DNA of 11,047 nucleotides, from contig JBDRFG010000078.1 of NCBI GenBank assembly GCA_043819135.1, positions 1-11,047 on the forward strand, read 5' to 3'. Both the position numbers and the translations under genes were made by a program. Below the pieces are notes generated by a model. That model worked only from the letters and a program-made list of their open reading frames with translations, was not told the DNA's origin and searched no databases. Below, piece by piece: positions 374 through 11,046 of this stretch (position 1 is the first letter of the stretch; the number at the start of each line of letters is the position of its first letter). The DNA comes from Candidatus Eiseniibacteriota bacterium. Lineage in GTDB: Bacteria; Joyebacterota; Joyebacteria; Joyebacterales; Joyebacteraceae.

Positions 374-3298
374 TCAGCCCGACTGGATGGTCTCTCTGAC
401 CATCTTGAGAAGGCCCGTTAGCGAGTAGGGTTTCTGAAGGAACGGCAGGCCCTTGTCCTTGATGGTTTCCCACTGCGAGCGGTGACTGGCGTGCCCGCTG
501 CTCATGAGCACGCGGAGTCCGGGCGCCCGCCCCAGGAGTTCATCCGCGAGCTGAACACCACTCTTGTCAGGCAGAACCACGTCGCTGAACACGAGGTCGA
601 ATCTCCCTTCTTCCTGCTCGTAGATCCTCAGGGCCTCCGCGACGTTAGGGGCTTCGAATACCTCGTATCCGTTCTTGCGAAGGATCGTGGCAGCGAGGTC
701 CCGCACCGAGTCTTCGTCCTCCACGACGAGGATTCGCTCGCCCGAACCTGGCTCTCCAGGCCGCATCTTCGGAGCCGGCGACGGTCTGGAGGCGGGCGCC
801 GAGCCGGCCGCGGGGAGATAGACCTCGAACGTGGTTCCCATTCTCGGAGTGCTAAGTGTGTATATCCACCCCTTGTGCTGCTTGACTATCCCGTAGACGA
901 CGGACAGCCCAAGGCCGGTTCCCTTGCCGGGTCCCTTCGTGCTGAAGAACGGCTCGAATATCCGACCCATCGTATCCTGATCCATGCCGCTACCGGAGTC
1001 CTCCACGGAGACGCAGACGAAGTCTCCCGTCCTGGCCCCCGTGTCGTCCGCGACGTGGGTCTCGTCGAGCCGCACGTTCCTGGTTCGAATCGTCAGCGAA
1101 CCACCATCCGGCATCGCGTCCCGGGCGTTGACCGCCAGGTTCATCAGCACTTGCTGGACGCTTCCCTCATCCGCCATGGCCGGCCGCAGGTCAGGCTCGA
1201 GCACAGTATTGACCCTGATGTCCTCACCGATAAGCGGAGAGAGCATCTTGGCCATGCCTCGGGTCGTCGCGTTGACGTCGACCGGGTGCAGCTGCACAGC
1301 CTGCTCGCGTCCGAAGAGGAGCAGCTGACGTACGAGGCCGGCGCCCCTGTCGGCGGCGCTCCGTATCTTCTCGAGGTCCTCGTGCATGCGGTCCGACTCG
1401 CTCACGGACATCAGCGCCAGCTCCGTGAATCCCAGGATCGCCGTCAGGAGATTGTTGAAGTCGTGGGCGACCCCGGACGCCAACGTTCCTACCGCCTCCA
1501 TCTTCTGGGCCTGAACCAGCTGCGCTTCGACTTCCCGTGTCTGGCCCTCGGCGAGCTTCTTCTCGATCGCCGCCGCGATCATCCCGACCACCGTCTCGAA
1601 GAACAGCCTGTCGCTCTCTTCATGTATCTCTGCCGGAGTCCGGGAGGAGAGCTGCATGACGGCGAGAAGGTTGCGGCTCGCCCCGAAGACCGGATAGGCG
1701 ATGAGGGAGCGTATTCCGAAGGCGTCCAGTCTCTCGCGATGAGACTCGGAGATCGGGTGAGTCGTGACATCAGCTGCGAACACCGGCTCACCGGTCCGCG
1801 CGACATGGGCGGCCATGCACTCCTGGTCTTTGTCTATGGACTGGCTCGAGATCAGGGAACGTTGGTCGTCGCGCAGCCCGACCACGGCCGCCGGTTCAAG
1901 TATCCCATTCTTACCATCGTGGAGGCGAAGCGTCCCGGCGTCGAATCCGAGGACCTCAACCAGGCCACCGAGAACGCGAGAGCACAGATCCGACATATCG
2001 CTCGCGCGCACAGCGGCTTCGGCGATCACGCGGAACGTTCTGCGCTCACGCTCACGCGCGACCTCGGCTCGCTTCCTGTCGGTGATGTCACGCATGATCC
2101 CCTGGTAACCGAGCGTAGTCCCATCCGCGCCCTTCCTCACGGTCGACGCGAGAAGGCAATCGACCTTCCTGCCGTCCTTGTGGAGCAGCGTGATCTCGAA
2201 CCCGCGGACGAACCCCTGCTGCTCGATGACCTCCTGGAATCTCACTCGCTGTTCCGGGTCGGCGTAGAGCCCATGTACGTCCCGCTCCAAGAGCTCGTCC
2301 CGCGTGTATCCGAACAGCGACACGGCGGACGGGCTGATGTCGACCAACCTGCCGTCTCGTGACGTCATGTAGATGACGTCGATCGACTCCTCGAAGAGCG
2401 AGCGGTATCTCACTTCGCTCTCCTGCAGGGCCCGCTCGACGACATTGTGCTCGGACACGGCCTGCAGGGCCATGACGACTCCTATGGCCTTCCCGTCGTT
2501 GTCGTGTCTCAGCGCCGCGTGCACGGAGACGCTCCGCGTGGTCCCGTCCGGGCGGATGACTCTGATGTCGTAGGGGCGCGTGGAGCCCTCGCGCAGGTCA
2601 GAGGTTCTCTCGAGGATGGAATCCCGGTCCTCCTCCGACACGAACTCGTCGAGACTTCGGCCGAGGAGGCTCTTCGCCTTCACTTCGAACACGTCTGCCG
2701 CCGCCCAGTTTGCGAACACGAATCTGTGATTCGTGTCGAACGAACAGACCGGGGTTGGGAGGCATTCGACCAGCGCATGATACTGACGGTCACCCGCCGC
2801 GAGAGCGGCCTCGGCGTGTCTTTGAGCGGTGATGTCCTTGCCCGCGAGTAGTACGCCGTCGGTGCGCCCGCGTATGTCCGGGCGGACGACGGCCGACAGG
2901 ATGAGCACTCTGCGGATCGCCCCGCTTCCGCTCCTCAGCCCAACCTCGAGTTCCCTGGTGAGCTTCCCTCGGAAGGTCTGCTCGAGACGCGCGGGGCCAG
3001 CCGAGTCCTTGTCGGGCACAACGAGGTCGAGGAACCGTGTTCCCTTCAACTGGTCGGGGGAGTAGCCGAGGCACGTGGTCACGGCTTGGTTCGAATCCAG
3101 AATGACGCCCTCATGGTCAACGACGGCACAGAGCATCGGCCCGTCGTCATAGAGGACGCGATACCTGGCCTCGAGGGCGGCAAGTTCCTCGGCAACCAGA
3201 TGCGCCTTGCTCTTCAGGGCGTCGAGCTCTGAGACCTTGCGCCTGAGGGATTCCAGTTCGGCGAGCATTTCGCCCGAGGGCCAGGGACTGTCGGCCAT
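374..3298 (-). CDS. Cytoplasmic hybrid sensor histidine kinase/response regulator (3x PAS, GAF, HisKA, HATPase_c, REC; CckA-like), ~974 aa
   Basis: H-box 'LASGVAHDFNNLL', N-box 'QQVLMNLAVNARDAM', G1/F/G2 boxes 'DSGSGM...IFEPFFSTK..GKGTGLGL'. Receiver 'ILVVEDE...DLVFSDVVLP...MSSG...QKPY'. PAS-PAC modules end in 'KDIT' and 'RDIT'; GAF 'RTGEPVF...GIRSLIAYPV'. Start moved from 3409 to ATG 3298 because it has an AGAGGA RBS ~7 nt upstream and the extension is unlike protein. Confidence 0.93.
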   Translation of the reverse strand: MADSPWPSGEMLAELESLRRKVSELDALKSKAHLVAEELAALEARYRVLYDDGPMLCAVVDHEGVILDSNQAVTTCLGYSPDQLKGTRFLDLVVPDKDSAGPARLEQTFRGKLTRELEVGLRSGSGAIRRVLILSAVVRPDIRGRTDGVLLAGKDITAQRHAEAALAAGDRQYHALVECLPTPVCSFDTNHRFVFANWAAADVFEVKAKSLLGRSLDEFVSEEDRDSILERTSDLREGSTRPYDIRVIRPDGTTRSVSVHAALRHDNDGKAIGVVMALQAVSEHNVVERALQESEVRYRSLFEESIDVIYMTSRDGRLVDISPSAVSLFGYTRDELLERDVHGLYADPEQRVRFQEVIEQQGFVRGFEITLLHKDGRKVDCLLASTVRKGADGTTLGYQGIMRDITDRKRAEVARERERRTFRVIAEAAVRASDMSDLCSRVLGGLVEVLGFDAGTLRLHDGKNGILEPAAVVGLRDDQRSLISSQSIDKDQECMAAHVARTGEPVFAADVTTHPISESHRERLDAFGIRSLIAYPVFGASRNLLAVMQLSSRTPAEIHEESDRLFFETVVGMIAAAIEKKLAEGQTREVEAQLVQAQKMEAVGTLASGVAHDFNNLLTAILGFTELALMSVSESDRMHEDLEKIRSAADRGAGLVRQLLLFGREQAVQLHPVDVNATTRGMAKMLSPLIGEDIRVNTVLEPDLRPAMADEGSVQQVLMNLAVNARDAMPDGGSLTIRTRNVRLDETHVADDTGARTGDFVCVSVEDSGSGMDQDTMGRIFEPFFSTKGPGKGTGLGLSVVYGIVKQHKGWIYTLSTPRMGTTFEVYLPAAGSAPASRPSPAPKMRPGEPGSGERILVVEDEDSVRDLAATILRKNGYEVFEAPNVAEALRIYEQEEGRFDLVFSDVVLPDKSGVQLADELLGRAPGLRVLMSSGHASHRSQWETIKDKGLPFLQKPYSLTGLLKMVRETIQSG

Positions 3299-3722: not shown

Positions 3723-4502
3723 ATGAGTTCGAGAAGGGAATTCCGCAACCCATGGGCAGTTGCGCCGTTTGTGGCCGTGCTCCTGGCAGTCATCTGGGTA
3801 TCCACCGCCTGCGCGGTCCCATGTCCCGAAGTCGTGTTTTTCAGGGTCGGTAGCCAGTTCGCGGCCATAGGCTGGACCATGGGCGTGGGCGAGCACGAGA
3901 TCGATGACTTCGGCGGGTACCGGCTCTGGATGCGGGAAGTTTGGAAGAATCCGGACCCCTCCCCGGAGAGCTTCTCCCTGGTTCGAGAGTACGTGCTCGG
4001 CGAGGACAACCCTGGCGCCGCCGGCTACTGGCCGTTCGGCCCGTACTACGAGCAGCCGACACGCGCCGACAGCGCGACCATATTCCAGAACTCGTTCCCT
4101 TACGAGTTCGCGGTGACGGCCTTCGACATCAACGACCCGCATGCGGTCAACCACGCCTGCATCGACAGCACGAGAACCGGCGTCATCTACCCGCGGGTTG
4201 GGACGCGCAGCGACCTCAAGGCCGTCCGGTGTATCCCGAACCCTTACCGCGCCGCGGCGGACTGGGAGTACGGTGGCCAGAGACGCGTGGCCTTCATCGG
4301 CCTTCCGGAGCGGGCGACCATCAGGATCTACACGGTAGCAGCGGACTACGTGCGGACGCTCGACCACGCGGACGCCGAGAGCGACCTTGAGTTCTGGGAT
4401 CTGAGGAACTCGGACGGCGAAGATATCGCGCCGGGCGTGTACATGTACCAAGTCGAATCTGAGGGCGAGACCATAGAGGGCAAGGTAATGATCATCAAGT
4501 AA
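3723..4502 (+). CDS. Secreted protein with a C-terminal T9SS type A / FlgD-Ig-like sorting domain, 259 aa
   Basis: Strong RBS GGAGGGAGGA. N-terminal signal peptide with basic n-region, hydrophobic 'AVAPFVAVLLAVIWV' and A-x-A 'ACA'. The central region is Fn3-like ('DFGGYRLW...YEFAVTAFD'). The C-terminus 'PNPY...FIGLP..ATIRIYTVA..YVRTL...WDLRN..G..IAPGVYMYQV......GKVMIIK' has the typical secretion-CTD pattern. Confidence 0.8.
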   Translation: MSSRREFRNPWAVAPFVAVLLAVIWVSTACAVPCPEVVFFRVGSQFAAIGWTMGVGEHEIDDFGGYRLWMREVWKNPDPSPESFSLVREYVLGEDNPGAAGYWPFGPYYEQPTRADSATIFQNSFPYEFAVTAFDINDPHAVNHACIDSTRTGVIYPRVGTRSDLKAVRCIPNPYRAAADWEYGGQRRVAFIGLPERATIRIYTVAADYVRTLDHADAESDLEFWDLRNSDGEDIAPGVYMYQVESEGETIEGKVMIIK

Positions 4503-4683: not shown

Positions 4684-6501
4684 TTGGGTGCGACAATAAT
4701 AGAGAAGATCATAGGTGCGCATTCGGGCCGCGACGTGTCTCCCGGCGACACCGTTGATGTCGTCATCGATTCTCGCGTCGCGAGGGACTTCGGCGGCGCG
4801 AACGTGGTCAAGAACATGGAGGACCACGGGTTGACGGTTGACGATGCCGGAAAGACGTACTTCACGTTTGACTGCAACCCTGGGGGTTCCGACCAGAAGT
4901 ACGCGGCGAACCAGCAGATCTGTCGCGGCTTCGCGCGGGCGCGGGGAATCCCGGTCTACGACGTCAACGCCGGCATCGGGACGCACATCGCGATCGACGA
5001 CGGACTCGTCGGTCCCGGCGGCACCATAGTGTCGACCGATTCGCACGCGAACATCCTGGGCGCGATCGGCGCGTTCGGACAAGGGATGGGAGACCAGGAC
5101 ATAGCGAGCGCATGGGCGCACGGCAAGGTCTGGTTCAATGTTCCGAAGTCGATGCGCGTCTTCCTCGATGGAACTCCAGGACCCGCGGCGACGCCGAAGG
5201 ACATCGTGCTCGCGTGCCTCAGGCACTTCCACGCGAGCGGTCTCCTCGGCTTCGCGGGAGAGTACTACGGCGAGGCAGCGGACCTGCTGTCGCTCGACGG
5301 GCGGATCACCGTCGCGTCCATGGCGACGGAAATGGGTGGGATCATTACCTTCTTCCCGCCGAGCAACGATGTCATCGAGTACTGCCGCGCCGCCGGAGCC
5401 GAGTCGTTCACGCCCGCGTTCGCGGACCCGGACGCGCGCTACGACAGCGAGACGCGCGTGGACATAGACGGGCTCGCTCCCCTCATCGCACGCCCGGGGC
5501 ATCCGGATGACGTCGTGGAAGTGAGCGAGGTCGCAGGAAGGAAGATCGACTCTGCATTCATCGGCTCCTGCACGAACGGGCGATACGAGGACATGGTTGC
5601 GGCGGCCGCGATCCTGAAGAGTCGCAAGGTCGCGCCGGGCGTGGTCCTCAAGGTGGTCCCCTCGACCGACCGTATCTGGCAGCGGTGCCTGGAGGATGGG
5701 ATAATCCAGACTTTCAAGACCGCCGGCGCCCTGGTAGGCAACGCGGGCTGCGCCGGCTGCGCGGCCGGGCAGCTGGGCCAGAACGGCCCAGGGGAGGTTA
5801 CGATCAGCACCGGCAATCGCAACTACCCGGGCAAGCAGGGCAAGGGTGAGGTCTACCTGGCGTCTCCGGCGACCGCGGCCGCCTCGGCCGTGGCCGGCGA
5901 GATAGCGACCGCGGACAGCATACCCGACAAGCCCTCAGTCTTCATGCCGGACCCGGAACTAGCGGCTGCCGTGGCGTCGACGGAGGCAAGCGGCACGGCC
6001 ACTGGCGGGCGACCGACCGTCGTCAGGGGCAAGGTATGGGTCGTCGGGAAGGACAACGTCGACACCGACATGATCTTCCACAATCGACATCTGGCCATTA
6101 CCGATCTGGCGGAGATGGGTCAGCACACGTTCGGCAATCTTCCCGGCTGGGAAAGCTTCCCGACCGACGTTGCGCGCGGTGACATCGTGATAGTCGGCTC
6201 CAACTTCGGGTGCGGCAGCTCGCGCCAGCAGGCCGTGGATTGCTTCGCCAGTCTCGGCGTGTCGCTGGTCATAGCGGAGTCGTTCGGCGCTATCTACGAG
6301 CGCAACGCCATCAACGCCGGTATGCCGATAATGGCGGCGAGCCTGTCGGGCGCGGGAATAGAGAGCGGCGATGAGATCGAGGTCGACCTGACCGACGGAA
6401 CGATAACGCACCTGGCCGGCGGCAAGGTATTCGAGGGCAGGGGGTTCTCGGACGTGCAGATGGAGATATATCAGAGAGGCGGGCTCCTCGCGGCGGCTTA
6501 G
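4684..6501 (+). CDS. Aconitase-family [4Fe-4S] hydratase/isomerase, fused large (LeuC/HacA/DmdA-like) and small (LeuD/HacB-like swivel) subunits, ~605 aa; substrate unknown
   Basis: TTG start at 4684 gives MGATIIEKI, the typical LeuC/HacA N-terminus, with a GGGGGAAG RBS. Large-subunit motifs: 'TDSH', 'FIGSCTNGR', 'AGCAGC' (three cluster Cys) and 'STGNRNY'. Small-subunit motifs: 'DNVDTDMI', 'GSNFGCGSSR', 'AESFGAIYERNAINAG'. An Ala/Thr/Pro-rich linker lies at ~5905-6015. Confidence 0.9.
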   Translation: MGATIIEKIIGAHSGRDVSPGDTVDVVIDSRVARDFGGANVVKNMEDHGLTVDDAGKTYFTFDCNPGGSDQKYAANQQICRGFARARGIPVYDVNAGIGTHIAIDDGLVGPGGTIVSTDSHANILGAIGAFGQGMGDQDIASAWAHGKVWFNVPKSMRVFLDGTPGPAATPKDIVLACLRHFHASGLLGFAGEYYGEAADLLSLDGRITVASMATEMGGIITFFPPSNDVIEYCRAAGAESFTPAFADPDARYDSETRVDIDGLAPLIARPGHPDDVVEVSEVAGRKIDSAFIGSCTNGRYEDMVAAAAILKSRKVAPGVVLKVVPSTDRIWQRCLEDGIIQTFKTAGALVGNAGCAGCAAGQLGQNGPGEVTISTGNRNYPGKQGKGEVYLASPATAAASAVAGEIATADSIPDKPSVFMPDPELAAAVASTEASGTATGGRPTVVRGKVWVVGKDNVDTDMIFHNRHLAITDLAEMGQHTFGNLPGWESFPTDVARGDIVIVGSNFGCGSSRQQAVDCFASLGVSLVIAESFGAIYERNAINAGMPIMAASLSGAGIESGDEIEVDLTDGTITHLAGGKVFEGRGFSDVQMEIYQRGGLLAAA

Positions 6502-6560
6502 CCGCGGTCGGGCCGGACGCCAGAGGACCACAAGGAACGTCGTATGGAAGGAGGGACGCC

Positions 6561-7787
6561 ATGAGCGCAACCGGTCAGGCAGGCCGGAGGGGAGACAGCG
6601 TCCGCTCGGACTGCTGGGTCTCCGTCGAGCCGGCGGAGAGCGGCGGCCTGACGGTCTCCGTCGATAGCCGTGTCCAGTCGATGTACGGCGCGTCGATTAG
6701 GGCGTCCGTCGAGCAGGGGCTCGAGGCGCTTGGAGTCAAGCACGCCGCCGTGGAGATTGTGGACGCGGGTGCGGTTCCTTTTGTCATCTGGGCGAGGCTC
6801 GAGGCGGCGGTCAAGAACGCCGACCCCTCGATCACAGCGGAGCTTCTGCCGGAGGTGAAGGAGTTCACTCAGTACGGGACCACGCGTGAGCGCTTCAGAA
6901 GGTCCAGGCTCTACCTTCCCGGCGACCAGGTGAAGCTCATGCTCAACGCTGGGCTGCACGGACCCGACGGCGTCATCCTAGACCTGGAGGACAGCGTATC
7001 GCCGAGCCAGAAGGAGGCGGCGCGCTACGTCGTGAGGAACACGCTTCGATCCGTGGATTTCTTCGGCGCCGAGAGAATGGTCCGCATCAACCAGATACCG
7101 ATGGGGCTCGACGACCTTCCGTTCCTCGTTCCGAACAACGTCCACATCATACTGATACCCAAGTGCGAGAGCGCCGATGACGTCAGGGCCGTCGACGCGA
7201 AGGTACAGGAGATTCGCAAGGAGAAGGGCGTCGCGAACGAGGTCTTCCTCATGCCCATCGTCGAGAGCGCGCTCGGATGCTTCAGGGCGTACGAGATCGC
7301 GTCGGCCTCGCCGAACGTGGTGGCGCTGACAATAGGCCTCGAGGACTACACGGCCGACATCGGCACGCAACGCACCAACGAGGGGCGCGAGAGCTTCTGG
7401 GCACGCTCGCAGGTCGTGAACGCGGCGCGGGCCGCGCGCGTCCAGCCCATAGACACGGTGTTCTCGGACGTCACCGACACGGAAGGCCTCGTGGCGAGCA
7501 TTATCGAAGCTAAGGGCTTGGGTTTCGACGGCAAGGGTTGCATTCACCCAAGGCAGATCGAGACGATCCACAAGGGGTTCGCACCGAGCGAGGCTGAGGT
7601 CGCGAAGGCGACACGCATCGTGGTCGCTTTCGAGAAGGCCGAGGCGGAGGGTCTCGGGGTGGTGTCGCTCGGCAGCAAGATGATAGACCCACCGGTGGTC
7701 AAGCGCGCGCTGAGGACGGTCGAACTCGCGGTCGCATCCGGCGTCCTCTCCGAGGACTGGCGCGAGGAAGGAGGGGACGATGCCTGA
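6561..7787 (+). CDS. citE: Fused citrate lyase acyl-carrier (CitD-like, aa ~1-87) and citryl-CoA/ACP lyase beta subunit (CitE, aa ~113-408)
   Basis: RBS AAGGAGGG. The N-domain 'SDCWV...SRVQSMYGASIR...VEIVDAGA.PFVIWARLEAAV' matches the CitD pattern. The C-domain 'RRSRLYLPG...DGVILDLEDSV...VRIN...PKCE...ESALG...GLEDYTAD...DTVFSD...GFDGKGCIHPRQI...KMIDPPVV' is HpcH/CitE family. Confidence 0.9.
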   Translation: MSATGQAGRRGDSVRSDCWVSVEPAESGGLTVSVDSRVQSMYGASIRASVEQGLEALGVKHAAVEIVDAGAVPFVIWARLEAAVKNADPSITAELLPEVKEFTQYGTTRERFRRSRLYLPGDQVKLMLNAGLHGPDGVILDLEDSVSPSQKEAARYVVRNTLRSVDFFGAERMVRINQIPMGLDDLPFLVPNNVHIILIPKCESADDVRAVDAKVQEIRKEKGVANEVFLMPIVESALGCFRAYEIASASPNVVALTIGLEDYTADIGTQRTNEGRESFWARSQVVNAARAARVQPIDTVFSDVTDTEGLVASIIEAKGLGFDGKGCIHPRQIETIHKGFAPSEAEVAKATRIVVAFEKAEAEGLGVVSLGSKMIDPPVVKRALRTVELAVASGVLSEDWREEGGDDA

Positions 7788-9348
7788 GCAGAAACTCGTC
7801 AAGAACGCGGCGGGACGCATGGTCCCGACCGAAGTCAACGGCAGGGAAGCCATCCCGTACAAGGGAGTGGCGAAGCACCGCCCGACCGGGCGAAAGGCCG
7901 CTCCCGCCATCTCCACCGTCATGGACTACCCGGACAGCGGAGACAAGACCGTCCCCGACATCAAGGCGGCGCTTAAGGCAGCGGGGCTGAAGGACGGCAT
8001 GACCGTCTCGACGCACCATCACTTGAGGAACGGCGATAACGTCGCGAACGCGGTTTTCGACGCGGCCGCGGAGCTCGGCGTCAAGGACCTCATGTGGTTC
8101 CCCTCCGCCTGTTTCCCATGCCACGCGCCAATCCTCGAGCACATGAAGAGCGGCGTGGTGCACCACATCGAGGGCAGCATGAACGGCCCGCTGGGTGCCT
8201 ACTGCTCCGAGGGCAAGATGCGGGGTATGGGCGTCCTTCGCTCGCACGGCGGGCGCTATCGCGCGATACAGGACGGCGACGTGCACGTCGATATCGCCGT
8301 AATAGCGGGACCGACTGCCGACCCGTTTGGGAACGCCAACGGCCTCACCGGCCCGGCGGCCTGCGGGCTCATCGGGTTCGCGCTCGCCGACTCGGAGTAC
8401 GCCGACAGGGTCATCGTCGTCACCGACAACCTCATCGACTTCCCGTGCGTGCCCTGGCAGATACAGGGCAACAACGTCGACATCGTCACGACGATGCCGG
8501 CCATCGGTGACGCCAGCAAGATCGTCTCGGGCACGACGCAGATAACGAAGAGCCCTGACCGGCTGCGCATCGCCGAGATGACGGCCCGGTTCGTGAAGGA
8601 ATCGGGGATCATGCGCGACGGCTTTTCGTTCCAGGCAGGCGCGGGCGGCACGGCTCTCTCGTTCGCCATCTTCCTCATGGAGATGATGAGGGAGGAGGGC
8701 GTCAAGGCGCGGTTCGTGCGCGGCGGAAGCACGCAGTACTTGGTGCAGATGCTCGAAGAGGGGCTGACCGACTACATCCTCGACGGACAGACGTTCGACC
8801 TCGATGGCGTGCGGTCGATGCGCGAGAACCCGGCGCACGTCAACACGAGCCCGTTCACGAGCTACAACTATCACAGCAAGGGCAACTTCGCGTCGATGCT
8901 CGATTGCGTGGTGCTGGGAGCGACCGAGGTCGACGTCAACTTCAACGCCAACGTCGTGACGCATTCCGACGGCTACCTCCTGCACGGCATCGGCGGGTGG
9001 CAGAACTGCCTGTTCTCGAAGTGCACCATCCTGCCGATACCGGCGTTCCGCGACAGGATCCCCGTGCTGGTCGATGAGGTGACGACTCTCGTGGGGCCGG
9101 GCGAGCTCATCGACGTCATCGTGACGGAGCGCGGTATCGCCATCAACCCGCTCCGCGAGGACCTGCTCGCGGCGGTCGCGGGTTCGGACCTGCCCATCAG
9201 GCCGATCGAAGAGATCAAGGCCGAGGTGGACGACTTGGTAGGAGGCGCTCCCGAGAAGCCGAACCTGGGCGAGAAGGTGGTGGCGGCCATCGAGTGGGTC
9301 GACGGCACGGTCATAGACAGCGTGAGACAGGTGCTGCTGGAGGAGTAG
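7780..9348 (+). CDS. citF: Citrate lyase alpha subunit (citrate:acetyl-ACP/CoA transferase), 522 aa
   Basis: Motifs 'GLKDGMTVSTHHHLRNGD', 'RSHGGR', 'DPFGNANG', 'FSFQAGAGG', 'LGATEVDVNFNANV', 'PGELIDVIVTERGIAINP'. RBS GGAGGGG. Overlaps the upstream gene by 8 bp (ATGCCTGA), consistent with translational coupling. Confidence 0.93.
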   Translation: MPEQKLVKNAAGRMVPTEVNGREAIPYKGVAKHRPTGRKAAPAISTVMDYPDSGDKTVPDIKAALKAAGLKDGMTVSTHHHLRNGDNVANAVFDAAAELGVKDLMWFPSACFPCHAPILEHMKSGVVHHIEGSMNGPLGAYCSEGKMRGMGVLRSHGGRYRAIQDGDVHVDIAVIAGPTADPFGNANGLTGPAACGLIGFALADSEYADRVIVVTDNLIDFPCVPWQIQGNNVDIVTTMPAIGDASKIVSGTTQITKSPDRLRIAEMTARFVKESGIMRDGFSFQAGAGGTALSFAIFLMEMMREEGVKARFVRGGSTQYLVQMLEEGLTDYILDGQTFDLDGVRSMRENPAHVNTSPFTSYNYHSKGNFASMLDCVVLGATEVDVNFNANVVTHSDGYLLHGIGGWQNCLFSKCTILPIPAFRDRIPVLVDEVTTLVGPGELIDVIVTERGIAINPLREDLLAAVAGSDLPIRPIEEIKAEVDDLVGGAPEKPNLGEKVVAAIEWVDGTVIDSVRQVLLEE

Positions 9349-9386: not shown

Positions 9387-9426
9387 CGAAGAGCGGGGCC
9401 TCTCGAACAGAGGCCCCGCTTCTTCG
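9387..9426. terminator. Intrinsic, probably bidirectional terminator between citF and the convergent MFS gene
   Basis: Perfect 12-bp stem AGCGGGGCCTCT (9392-9403), loop CGAAC, AGAGGCCCCGCT (9409-9420), followed by TCTT. The flanking CGAAG/CTTCG extend the stem. Confidence 0.8.
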
Positions 9427-9449
9427 TGCAGTACTGACTCGCGCTGCGA

Positions 9450-10706
9450 CTACGCGGTCTTCGGCGGCCTGATCATGAACGCGATGACGGCAGCCACCAG
9501 GCAGGCTGCGCCCGCGATGGTGAAGGCCAGCGGGAAGTTGTTCAGGTCACCGAGCTTGCCGCCCATGACCGGTCCCAGGATGCCGCCCACACCGTAGGCC
9601 AGGAAGACCCAGCCGTAGTTCTGCCCGATGTGCTTGGTCCCGAATGTGTCGGCCGTGGTGGTCGGGAATAGGGCGAAGTTACCACCGAAGTTGAAGCCCA
9701 CCAGGGTAGCGCCGAGATAGAGCAGCGCCTTGGTGCCGGCCATGTAGGGGAAGAGAATGACGAGAACTCCCTGCGTGGCGGTCATGATGACGACGGACAG
9801 CTTGCGGCCCAGCTTGTCGCTCATCGCGCCCCAGGCAATGCGTCCGATACCGTTGGCCAGAGAGAAGAACACGGCCATGGCCGTGCCGGCGACCGCCGAG
9901 GCGGCGATCGGATCCATCCCGTTTGCCTCGAGAGCCTGACTCGGGAAGAGCTTCATCAGGCCGATAGACATGAGTCCCGCGCCGGCACTGAACAGGAAGG
10001 TGAGGAAGATCATGTAGAACTGTGGGGTCTTCAGCATGGCGCCCGCGTTGAAATCCACAGTGCCGGCCGCGGGCTTGCCACCGGTCGTGGCCGAAGGAGG
10101 CGTGTAGCCGGTGGGGAGCCAGTCCTTCGGGGGAAAGACCATGACGAGCGCCCCGAGGATGGTGGCAACGGCGAAGACGACCCCGTAGATGATGAAGGTC
10201 GTCGACAGACCCATGTTCTCGATCATGTGGCCCCAGGCGCCGGCCATCTTCACCCAGATCGTCGCACCGAAGCCAAAGCCAGCAACCGCGAGACCGGTGA
10301 TAAGCCCCTTCTTGTCGGGGAACCAGCGCATGCCCACGGCGATGGGTACAACGTAGGCCAGACCGATGCCCGAGCCCCCGATGATGCCCACGAAGACGAA
10401 GATGGGCCAGAAAGAGGTGCCTCCGAACAGCCCGGCGAGCAGGTAGCCCGTGCCGAGCACGATGCCGCCGGCGATGGCGAGCTTGCGCGGTCCGACCTTG
10501 GGCATCATCCGGCCGGCGATCACCATGACGATGGCGAAGAGCGCCAGGCCCGCCGAGAAGACCATCTGTGTTTCCGTCTTGGTCCATCCGGCCTCGACGA
10601 GGGGCTTGGTAAAGACACTCCAAGCGTAGATCGCACCCAGACAGAGCTGGATGAGAATCGCGCCAACCACTACAAGCCCGCGATTCATAGTCTTCTGTTG
10701 TGCCAT
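9450..10706 (-). CDS. OFA/monocarboxylate-type MFS transporter (OxlT/YhjX-like), ~418 aa
   Basis: About 12 hydrophobic segments; motifs 'YAWSVF.KPL..AGW', 'WFPDKKGLITGLAVAGFGFG', 'NGIGRIAWGAMSDKLGRK', 'GGNFALFP...D.FG.K..G.NYG'. Start moved from 10997 to ATG 10706 (AAGGAGA RBS); the longer extension would overlap acs. Confidence 0.9.
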   Translation of the reverse strand: MAQQKTMNRGLVVVGAILIQLCLGAIYAWSVFTKPLVEAGWTKTETQMVFSAGLALFAIVMVIAGRMMPKVGPRKLAIAGGIVLGTGYLLAGLFGGTSFWPIFVFVGIIGGSGIGLAYVVPIAVGMRWFPDKKGLITGLAVAGFGFGATIWVKMAGAWGHMIENMGLSTTFIIYGVVFAVATILGALVMVFPPKDWLPTGYTPPSATTGGKPAAGTVDFNAGAMLKTPQFYMIFLTFLFSAGAGLMSIGLMKLFPSQALEANGMDPIAASAVAGTAMAVFFSLANGIGRIAWGAMSDKLGRKLSVVIMTATQGVLVILFPYMAGTKALLYLGATLVGFNFGGNFALFPTTTADTFGTKHIGQNYGWVFLAYGVGGILGPVMGGKLGDLNNFPLAFTIAGAACLVAAVIAFMIRPPKTA

Positions 10707-10815: not shown

Positions 10816-11046
10816 CTAGTGGGCCTTTCCGATCTCCTCAACCGCCTCGGGGTTGGCAAGCGTCGACGTGTCGCCGACCTCCTCACCGATCGCCTTCGCG
10901 CGGATGACGCGACGCATGATCTTGCCCGAACGGGTCTTGGGAACGTCGTGAACGAACCAGATCTCGTCGGGGCGGGCGATCTTGCCAATCTCCACACCGA
11001 CGTGCTCGCGAAGCTCCTGCCTGAGCTCCTCGCTCGGCTCGACGCC
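10816..11046 (-). CDS. acs: 3' end (partial) of an AMP-forming acetate/propionate-CoA ligase (acetyl-CoA synthetase)
   Basis: Translates to GVEPSEELRQELREHVGVEIGKIARPDEIWFVHDVPKTRSGKIMRRVIRAKAIGEEVGDTSTLANPEAVEEIGKAH*. It has the A10 motif PKTRSGKIMRR with the catalytic/acetylated Lys and the Acs-typical 'GDTSTLANP' tail. Not in the ORF track because the start lies beyond the window. Confidence 0.88.
   Translation of the reverse strand, partial: GVEPSEELRQELREHVGVEIGKIARPDEIWFVHDVPKTRSGKIMRRVIRAKAIGEEVGDTSTLANPEAVEEIGKAH

Follow-up and report, generated by a model that had tools for sequence, protein, structure and literature searches.

The 11,047-nucleotide contig JBDRFG010000078.1 of the Candidatus Eiseniibacteriota bacterium assembly GCA_043819135.1 (92.4% complete; G000 in the labels used here, where G, C and L numbers denote genomes, contigs and fetched loci) was analysed in its entirety and is referred to as the window. 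It encodes a fused aconitase-type hydratase (HYD), a CitD-CitE fusion (CitDE) and a CitF-type transferase. The HYD-CitDE-CitF operon is real, conserved and non-canonical as a citrate lyase, and makes up one half of a six-component enzyme system of sediment microbes, which appears not to have been described and whose pathway is assembled from known enzyme families. As judged from sequence comparisons, this system probably converts 2-oxoadipate, a product of lysine breakdown, to 2-oxoglutarate and acetate. The chances are about even that the operon provides the last steps of an undescribed route for shortening 2-oxoadipate, in which the upper aminoadipate pathway would run backwards. No account of the operon or the route was found in the open-licence papers and preprints searched, a coverage that excludes most subscription journals.

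The HYD gene (4684-6501, + strand, TTG start) codes for a 605-aa [4Fe-4S] hydro-lyase in which LeuC/HacA- and LeuD/HacB-type parts are fused (domains Aconitase and Aconitase_C). It is followed, after a gap of 59 bp, by the gene for the CitD-CitE fusion (6561-7787, +; 408 aa), in which an acyl carrier protein (ACP) domain (PF06857; approximately residues 15-88) precedes a CitE-type acyl-CoA lyase (HpcH_HpaI; residues 111-395). This gene overlaps by 8 bp with that for the CitF-type CoA transferase (7780-9348, +; 522 aa, CitF domain). A purine-rich ribosome-binding site precedes each of the three open reading frames (ORFs), and a hairpin bearing a short T tail on either strand (9393-9427) separates citF from a convergent major facilitator superfamily (MFS) gene. 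The hairpin core (9393-9419) with its tail, TTCTTCGT, folds at -39.2 kcal/mol (z -8.5; 0/200 shuffles equally stable), and the hairpin is likely a bidirectional terminator. It was absent from the output of a consensus terminator scan, and a sigma-70 promoter scan found none near the HYD start. The original prediction of three co-oriented genes with these spacings, domains and closing hairpin is thus borne out by ORF calls, domain search and folding alike, but its treatment of them as a self-contained unit is not, as the module extends to a second operon that encodes two further enzymes plus an HD protein. The best NCBIfam matches of the three ORFs are LeuC/HacA plus LeuD-type, citD, citE and citF, and the lyase subunits score just or well under the equivalog cut-offs (citD 61.3 vs 63.5, citE 286 vs 443, citF 490 vs 501). 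Close protein relatives are labelled Candidatus Eisenbacteria.

The first serine of the canonical CitD motif AGT[LI]ES[SG]D is present in 6/6 canonical sequences and corresponds to E. coli Ser14, which is taken here to be the cofactor attachment site. In the CitD-like domain of the window this column is occupied by Arg15 (codon 6603-6605, +), and across 74 family members it holds arginine in 65, lysine in six, a gap in three and serine in none. The lack of citC, citG and citX, initially noted for the flanks, extends to the whole genome and to a phylum panel of 25 genomes (at least 80% complete, all of one family, so that the counts are not independent), where CitG, CitX and CitC were each over the cut-off in 0/25 while the E. 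coli control matched each time. The CitC search of the panel returned five marginal matches in frames of 164-181 aa, and tblastn with E. coli CitC, CitG and CitX against 206 fetched loci gave no match. Because these helper proteins are missing and the cofactor serine column is occupied by Arg or Lys, the lyase probably works with free CoA; the CitF transferase and CitE lyase very likely pass free CoA esters. In an analogous system the cofactor serine is MdcC Ser25, and the partner subunit accepts the free CoA ester, according to passages of PMC5534430. The CitE part shares 112/293 aligned residues with E. coli CitE, including 56 positions that are invariant across the family, while CitF shares 188/508 residues with E. 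coli CitF and forms a separate clade in a quick tree of 24 chosen rows, with long branches on the two canonical rows.

HYD, CitF and a 394-aa dehydrogenase are encoded in 21, 20 and 21 of the 25 panel genomes, respectively. Four genomes (G010, G014, G019 and G023) that are 97-100% complete or nearly so lack all three as well as a second hydratase. This second LeuC/HacA-like gene (33-37% identity) is found in 20/20 relatives with HYD, in 18 of them on the same contig and directly behind the dehydrogenase gene. The second operon in the relatives is ordered aminotransferase, dehydrogenase, HacA, HacB and HD protein, and lies approximately 10 kb from HYD-CitDE-CitF in several genomes; the aminotransferase gene precedes the dehydrogenase gene in 8/15 relatives viewed. 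In this assembly, the 5' part of the dehydrogenase gene is located at G000:C123:1-462, cut by the contig end exactly where HacAB and the HD protein would follow, and both are expected to lie just past it. The HD protein matched only HD-domain clusters in the Atlas, and was rejected as a stand-in for CitG/X because it also occurs beside lyases without a carrier domain. An aldehyde:ferredoxin oxidoreductase-like gene is located between both module operons in relatives (L083, L085, L087, L089; here G000:C123 8040-9491), with ferredoxin and MobB/ThiF-like neighbours; its product could oxidise allysine, or the arrangement could be plain synteny.

The substrates of the route are fairly likely to be those of the homocitrate series, as the dehydrogenase motifs, the cut-off passed by a Lys4-type partner, the HacAB signatures and the aminotransferase family all point there. 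The dehydrogenase motifs GAITS and Y-x-SPIV are invariant (49/49) and align with YSSPIV of the Schizosaccharomyces pombe homoisocitrate dehydrogenase (HICDH). The four best Protein Data Bank (PDB) matches of the N-terminal part are HICDHs, a first alignment of the motif to PDB entries having given weak matches only. Isocitrate dehydrogenases (IDHs) carry Asn at the position of the Ile, and this Asn is absent from the dehydrogenase. The Lys4-type partner hydratase, found in other lineages, scored over the TIGR00139 homoaconitase equivalog cut-off in 3/3 proteins tested (756-837 vs 530). HacAB of this lineage, represented by the pair from relatives, shares the HDN, RT[ED] and N-T-D signatures with the Lys4-type enzyme and is over the cut-off only for the hacA-family subfamily model. 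Among transaminases, the aminotransferase most resembles the kynurenine/aminoadipate and archaeal multi-substrate types.

In the proposed route, 2-oxoadipate would be reductively carboxylated to homoisocitrate by the HICDH-like enzyme, homoisocitrate dehydrated to homoaconitate by the homoaconitase-like HacAB pair, and homoaconitate rehydrated to (S)-homocitrate by HYD. CitF would then transfer CoA from acetyl-CoA onto (S)-homocitrate with release of acetate, and the CitE domain would cleave (S)-homocitryl-CoA to 2-oxoglutarate and acetyl-CoA. CoA would thus be catalytic and free, with the CitD-like domain serving as a cofactor-less scaffold. Passages of PMC3556520 describe fungal and Thermus homoaconitases as catalysing only the homoaconitate-homoisocitrate step, the biosynthetic route as using (R)-homocitrate, and a PrpD-type enzyme as required where a stereoisomer is unsuited to aconitase, PrpD bridging this mismatch in the methylcitrate cycle. 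The (S) isomer is invoked here because a second hydratase would be unnecessary on the (R) route. CitE enzymes cleave (3S)-citryl-CoA and (S)-citramalyl-CoA, as described in parts of PMC6689899. A Cahn-Ingold-Prelog parity check, which is not a structure, equates the (3S)-citryl geometry of CitE with (S)-homocitrate. Citrate-synthase-fold lyases and ATP-citrate lyase share this pro-S specificity. Each of the three kinds of lyase encoded next to HYD would accordingly depend on an enantiomer that is not a product of ordinary homoaconitases. It is a balanced proposition, for and against, that HYD has an (S)-specific role and supplies the isomer needed by the lyase; such a mismatch of enantiomers would explain both the rewiring of HYD and its exchange with PrpD.

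HYD forms its own subfamily in sequence comparison. Residues were counted in the 67 full-length sequences from 80 HYD loci and in 51 rows of partner hydratases. The cluster cysteines C296, C356 and C359 and the serine base S512 of the aconitase superfamily are present in 67/67, with D119-S120-H121, E216 and S513-R514 also kept. HYD carries R34, C64, T100-H101, K384, H466-N467-R468 and Q515, the partner hydratases being listed with H, H, H-Q, R and E. The histidines of the LeuCD/HacAB D-H and H-Q motifs, presumably His101 and His147 in aconitase numbering, are not retained, C64 (C in 64 and T in 3 of 67) and T100-H101 standing against H and H-Q in 51/51 partner rows, while R34, K384 and H466-N467 are invariant additions of the HYD family. 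C64 is presumed to fall on aconitase His101, a placement based on motif and alignment. The structure model of HYD (predicted local distance difference test score of 87) has as closest solved folds M. jannaschii MJ0499/MJ1003 (34-36% identity); model and fold search bear out the fold of HYD alone. HYD resembles archaeal-type LeuCD/HacAB in fold, the three cluster cysteines, DSH motif and catalytic serine, but differs in being single-chain, in two altered active-site histidine columns and in the invariant R34, K384 and HNR (466-468). Passages of PMC8184944 describe the roles of the cluster cysteines and serine base, and His101 as protonating the leaving hydroxyl.

Beyond the family, two sets of 80 loci were compared, namely the top 80 among 586 relatives of HYD in genome_contigs and the top 80 among 550 relatives of CitF in metagenome_contigs. 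Among the matches listed, HYD relatives are labelled Eisenbacteria, Krumholzibacteriia, KSB1, Zixiibacteriota, Bacteroidales, Acidobacteriota and Thermoplasmatota. A lyase is in view in 34/80 HYD loci, namely CitDE with or without CitF (16), a citryl-CoA-lyase-family protein (11, of which nine have CitF, without a carrier domain, in Thermoplasmatota) or an ATP-citrate-lyase-like protein (7), and HD and dehydrogenase genes occur in 27/80 and 13/80. The adjacency of hydratase and lyase, which had been suspected not to be fortuitous, is therefore not a matter of chance, being kept in relatives and recurring in these 34 loci, and the supposed functional tie between them is upheld by conserved adjacency and co-occurrence. 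The CitF loci contain CitDE (68/80), the dehydrogenase (42/80), a fused Lys4-type hydratase (37/80), a PrpD-like gene (27/80), HD (27/80) and HYD (3/80). HYD and the PrpD-like gene were never found in one locus (PrpD-like in 0/80 HYD loci; HYD in 0/27 PrpD loci). PrpD is present in 26 of the 27 Lys4 loci uncut by a contig end and HYD in one (L166), a Lys4-type operon with HYD at the place of PrpD and a CitF that is sister to that of a PrpD-type operon (SH-aLRT 98). HYD-type and PrpD-type operons are mixed within one CitF clade of the quick tree, and PrpD occurs in 1/25 panel genomes. The PrpD-like label derives from a single NCBIfam match, which stays under the cut-off (E 8.6e-28), a second protein tested giving none at 1e-25. 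This pattern suggests that three interchangeable lyases accompany HYD, and that HYD trades places with a PrpD-like dehydratase.

In five HYD loci (L008, L014, L026, L029 and L046) an ATP-citrate-lyase-like pair (SucC-like, 429 aa; SucD-like plus citryl-CoA-lyase, 715 aa) is encoded directly behind HD-HYD-HacAB, and may represent a homocitrate lyase mistaken for a reverse tricarboxylic acid (TCA) cycle marker. In a Krumholzibacteriia-like group (L005, L009, L011, L021, L023, L030, L032 and L067), two enoyl-CoA-hydratase-family genes and a cluster resembling FAD/2Fe-2S amino-acid or opine dehydrogenases lie ahead of HYD, and the loci show no lyase.

A catabolic direction appears likely, since the genomes have diaminopimelate genes and commonly a lysine-dehydrogenase-like gene but neither homocitrate synthase nor LysX. 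The dapA, dapB and dapF genes are over the cut-off in 5/5 genomes, including this one. Homocitrate synthase (HMGL-like fold) was found in 0/25 panel genomes and LysX was over the cut-off in 0/25, no search for LysW having been made. No frame of aminoadipate reductase length was found in 5/5 genomes, where there were short generic NAD-binding_4 matches only. A lysine-dehydrogenase/saccharopine-reductase-like gene is present in 20/25 (E<1e-11), its product being closest to saccharopine reductases and to PH1688, presumably an L-lysine dehydrogenase. Lysine 5,6-aminomutase was found in 0/25, a result without weight as the positive controls gave no match either. Taken as a whole, a widespread undescribed anaerobic catabolism of lysine or 2-aminoadipate, which would fix CO2 and dispose of NADH by backwards aminoadipate elongation via (S)-homocitrate, with HYD as an aconitase subfamily of inverted stereochemistry and a lyase carrier without covalent cofactor, is a tentative proposal with the odds somewhat against it.

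Several observations weigh against this interpretation. The dehydrogenase scores under every NCBIfam cut-off, even though its HICDH-type substrate motifs match, and archaeal members of the aminotransferase family are multi-substrate according to the PDB label. The whole chain would lie near equilibrium. As to the fate of 2-oxoglutarate, two glutamate dehydrogenases are encoded but sucA and sucC gave no match. The lysine-dehydrogenase-like gene also occurs in all four module-less genomes, no allysine dehydrogenase was identified, and lysA-like matches are over the cut-off in 2/5 genomes, this one not among them. Searches of this assembly found neither the second hydratase nor the HD protein, and no lysine-dehydrogenase-like gene or aminotransferase orthologue; no aminotransferase gene lies upstream of the dehydrogenase gene here, as is also the case in 7/15 relatives viewed. 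No lyase is present in the fetched flank, often short, of 46/80 HYD loci. Ser16, adjoining the cofactor serine column, is kept in 72/75 rows and could in principle bear a cofactor put on by an unfamiliar enzyme; E. coli CitD lacks this second serine. M. jannaschii HacAB performs both hydratase steps alone, so that the (R) route needs no second hydratase (passages of PMC3556520).

Among the alternatives, the same chemistry on other or broad substrates is unlikely. It would shorten 2-oxo acids from peptide fermentation by one carbon (2-oxobutyrate via 3-methylmalate, citraconate and (S)-citramalate, as well as branched and longer dicarboxylic acids), in line with the best family and structure matches of HYD, which are isopropylmalate/citramalate isomerases, with the cleavage of (S)-citramalyl-CoA by CitE relatives (parts of PMC6689899), with a stereochemical argument equally valid for (S)-citramalate and with the breadth of the aminotransferase family. 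The dehydrogenase motif, however, is that of HICDH rather than of the aligned isopropylmalate dehydrogenase, and the Lys4-type partner in 37/80 CitF loci likewise speaks for homocitrate. The citramalate lyase of the methylaspartate pathway in particular does not fit, GlmE and methylaspartate ammonia-lyase having given no tblastn match in this genome, relatives not being searched. A stand-alone GlmL-like domain is encoded in an 868-aa frame at G000:C8 69555-72161 (-), in a genome without glutamate mutase E or methylaspartase.

Slightly less probable again is the citrate series, in which 2-oxoglutarate would be converted via isocitrate and citrate to oxaloacetate and acetate, so that glutamate is fermented in redox balance; run the other way, the series would replace citrate synthase and aconitase. 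All three lyase types beside HYD bear citrate names, 16/21 module-bearing genomes have no citrate synthase, and this genome has glutamate dehydrogenase, phosphoenolpyruvate carboxykinase and malic enzyme and no other IDH- or aconitase-family gene. Some HICDHs also take isocitrate. A single aconitase would, however, suffice for citrate, yet two different hydratases are always kept; the dehydrogenase lacks the IDH Asn and has the fungal HICDH motif, and its partner hydratase elsewhere is over the homoaconitase cut-off. Malate dehydrogenase is over the cut-off in 0/5 genomes, and an HMGL-fold oxaloacetate decarboxylase was found in none of 25. Five genomes additionally keep separate citrate synthase, IDH-like, malate dehydrogenase and LeuCD-type genes. 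Of the substrates originally suggested, another acid in its homocitrate form therefore fits best, while citrate/isocitrate in either direction fits worse. The original account took in neither the dehydrogenase, second hydratase and HD protein nor the loss of the carrier serine and the altered active site of HYD. The separate operon in these 5/25 genomes (L098 = G018:C17 1300-8651; L099 and three more) consists of an IDH-like gene divergent from genes for a eukaryote-type (Si)-citrate synthase, a LarA-family nickel racemase, malate dehydrogenase and a LeuCD-type aconitase-family pair.

The homocitrate series could also run forward, from acetate and 2-oxoglutarate via (S)-homocitrate to 2-oxoadipate and 2-aminoadipate, as a synthase-free biosynthesis of lysine or another C6 product, which is rather improbable. 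The lyase could replace the absent homocitrate synthase, lysA is uncertain in this genome, most relatives have a saccharopine-reductase-like gene, and a chain near equilibrium would permit this direction. Against it stand the panel-wide lack of LysX over the cut-off, the lack of a long aminoadipate-reductase frame, the presence of the diaminopimelate genes and the four complete or near-complete genomes that do without the module. A citrate lyase of the canonical holo-ACP type that adjoins HYD by chance, which the three subunit families and the 56 shared CitE positions might suggest, is already largely refuted and extremely improbable given the absence of citC/G/X in 25/25, the lost serine column and strict co-occurrence with HYD.

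The preferred homocitrate-cleaving route recalls several known systems. Citrate (pro-3S)-lyase CitDEF (EC 4.1.3.6; E. coli citCDEFXG) and the ACP-type citramalate lyase of glutamate-fermenting clostridia (operon beside glmSLE) share with it a CitF-type transferase, a CitE-type lyase, a CitD-fold domain and, by presumption for the window, the acetate-releasing two-step chemistry. They differ in that here CitD is fused to CitE, Arg/Lys replaces the cofactor serine, CitC/G/X are lacking, CitF belongs to a separate clade and the lyase is tied to hydratases and a dehydrogenase. With the upper alpha-aminoadipate pathway of fungi and Thermus (homocitrate synthase; aconitase plus homoaconitase Lys4/LysTU; HICDH Lys12; transaminase), the module has in common two hydro-lyases, a HICDH-like dehydrogenase and often an aminoadipate-transaminase-family gene, but it contains a lyase of an (S)-specific family in place of homocitrate synthase, no LysX, and HYD or a PrpD-like protein rather than the TCA aconitase as second hydratase, and probably operates in reverse. 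The 2-methylcitrate cycle (PrpC, PrpD, AcnB) similarly couples a (Si)-type C-C enzyme, whose isomer is unsuited to aconitase, to a dedicated bridging dehydratase, with alternating PrpD-like and aconitase-like solutions (a variant uses AcnD and PrpF); here the substrate differs, a lyase/transferase stands for the synthase and a dehydrogenase for methylisocitrate lyase. If correct, the proposed route would extend the amino-acid fermentations of uncultured microbes that abound in sediments and digesters, correct the annotation of genes that databases assign no further than to the citrate lyase or isopropylmalate dehydratase family, imply that a CitDEF-type complex can function without CitC/G/X, and provide a natural test of how stereochemistry changes in the aconitase fold.

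One groundwater metatranscriptome contained 0.06 of the words, with 10 contig pieces (two at at least 99% identity) in 14/30 bins, which decides expression neither way. Convergent with citF is a gene for an L-lactate/oxalate-formate-type MFS transporter (9450-10706, -; NF049980 over cut-off), ahead of which lies the 3' end of an AMP-forming acyl-CoA ligase gene (10816-11046, -); both were rejected as module parts, being neighbours in just one near-identical locus. A hybrid histidine kinase with PAS-PAS-PAS-GAF and receiver domains is encoded at 374-3298 (-), and the gene at 3723-4502 (+) codes for a secreted-type protein of 259 aa whose C-terminus weakly matches a type IX secretion model (E 1.6e-5). 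These were likewise rejected, their synteny being confined to close relatives, in which the secreted-type protein is syntenic upstream of HYD; many paralogous C-termini of this protein occur in the genome.

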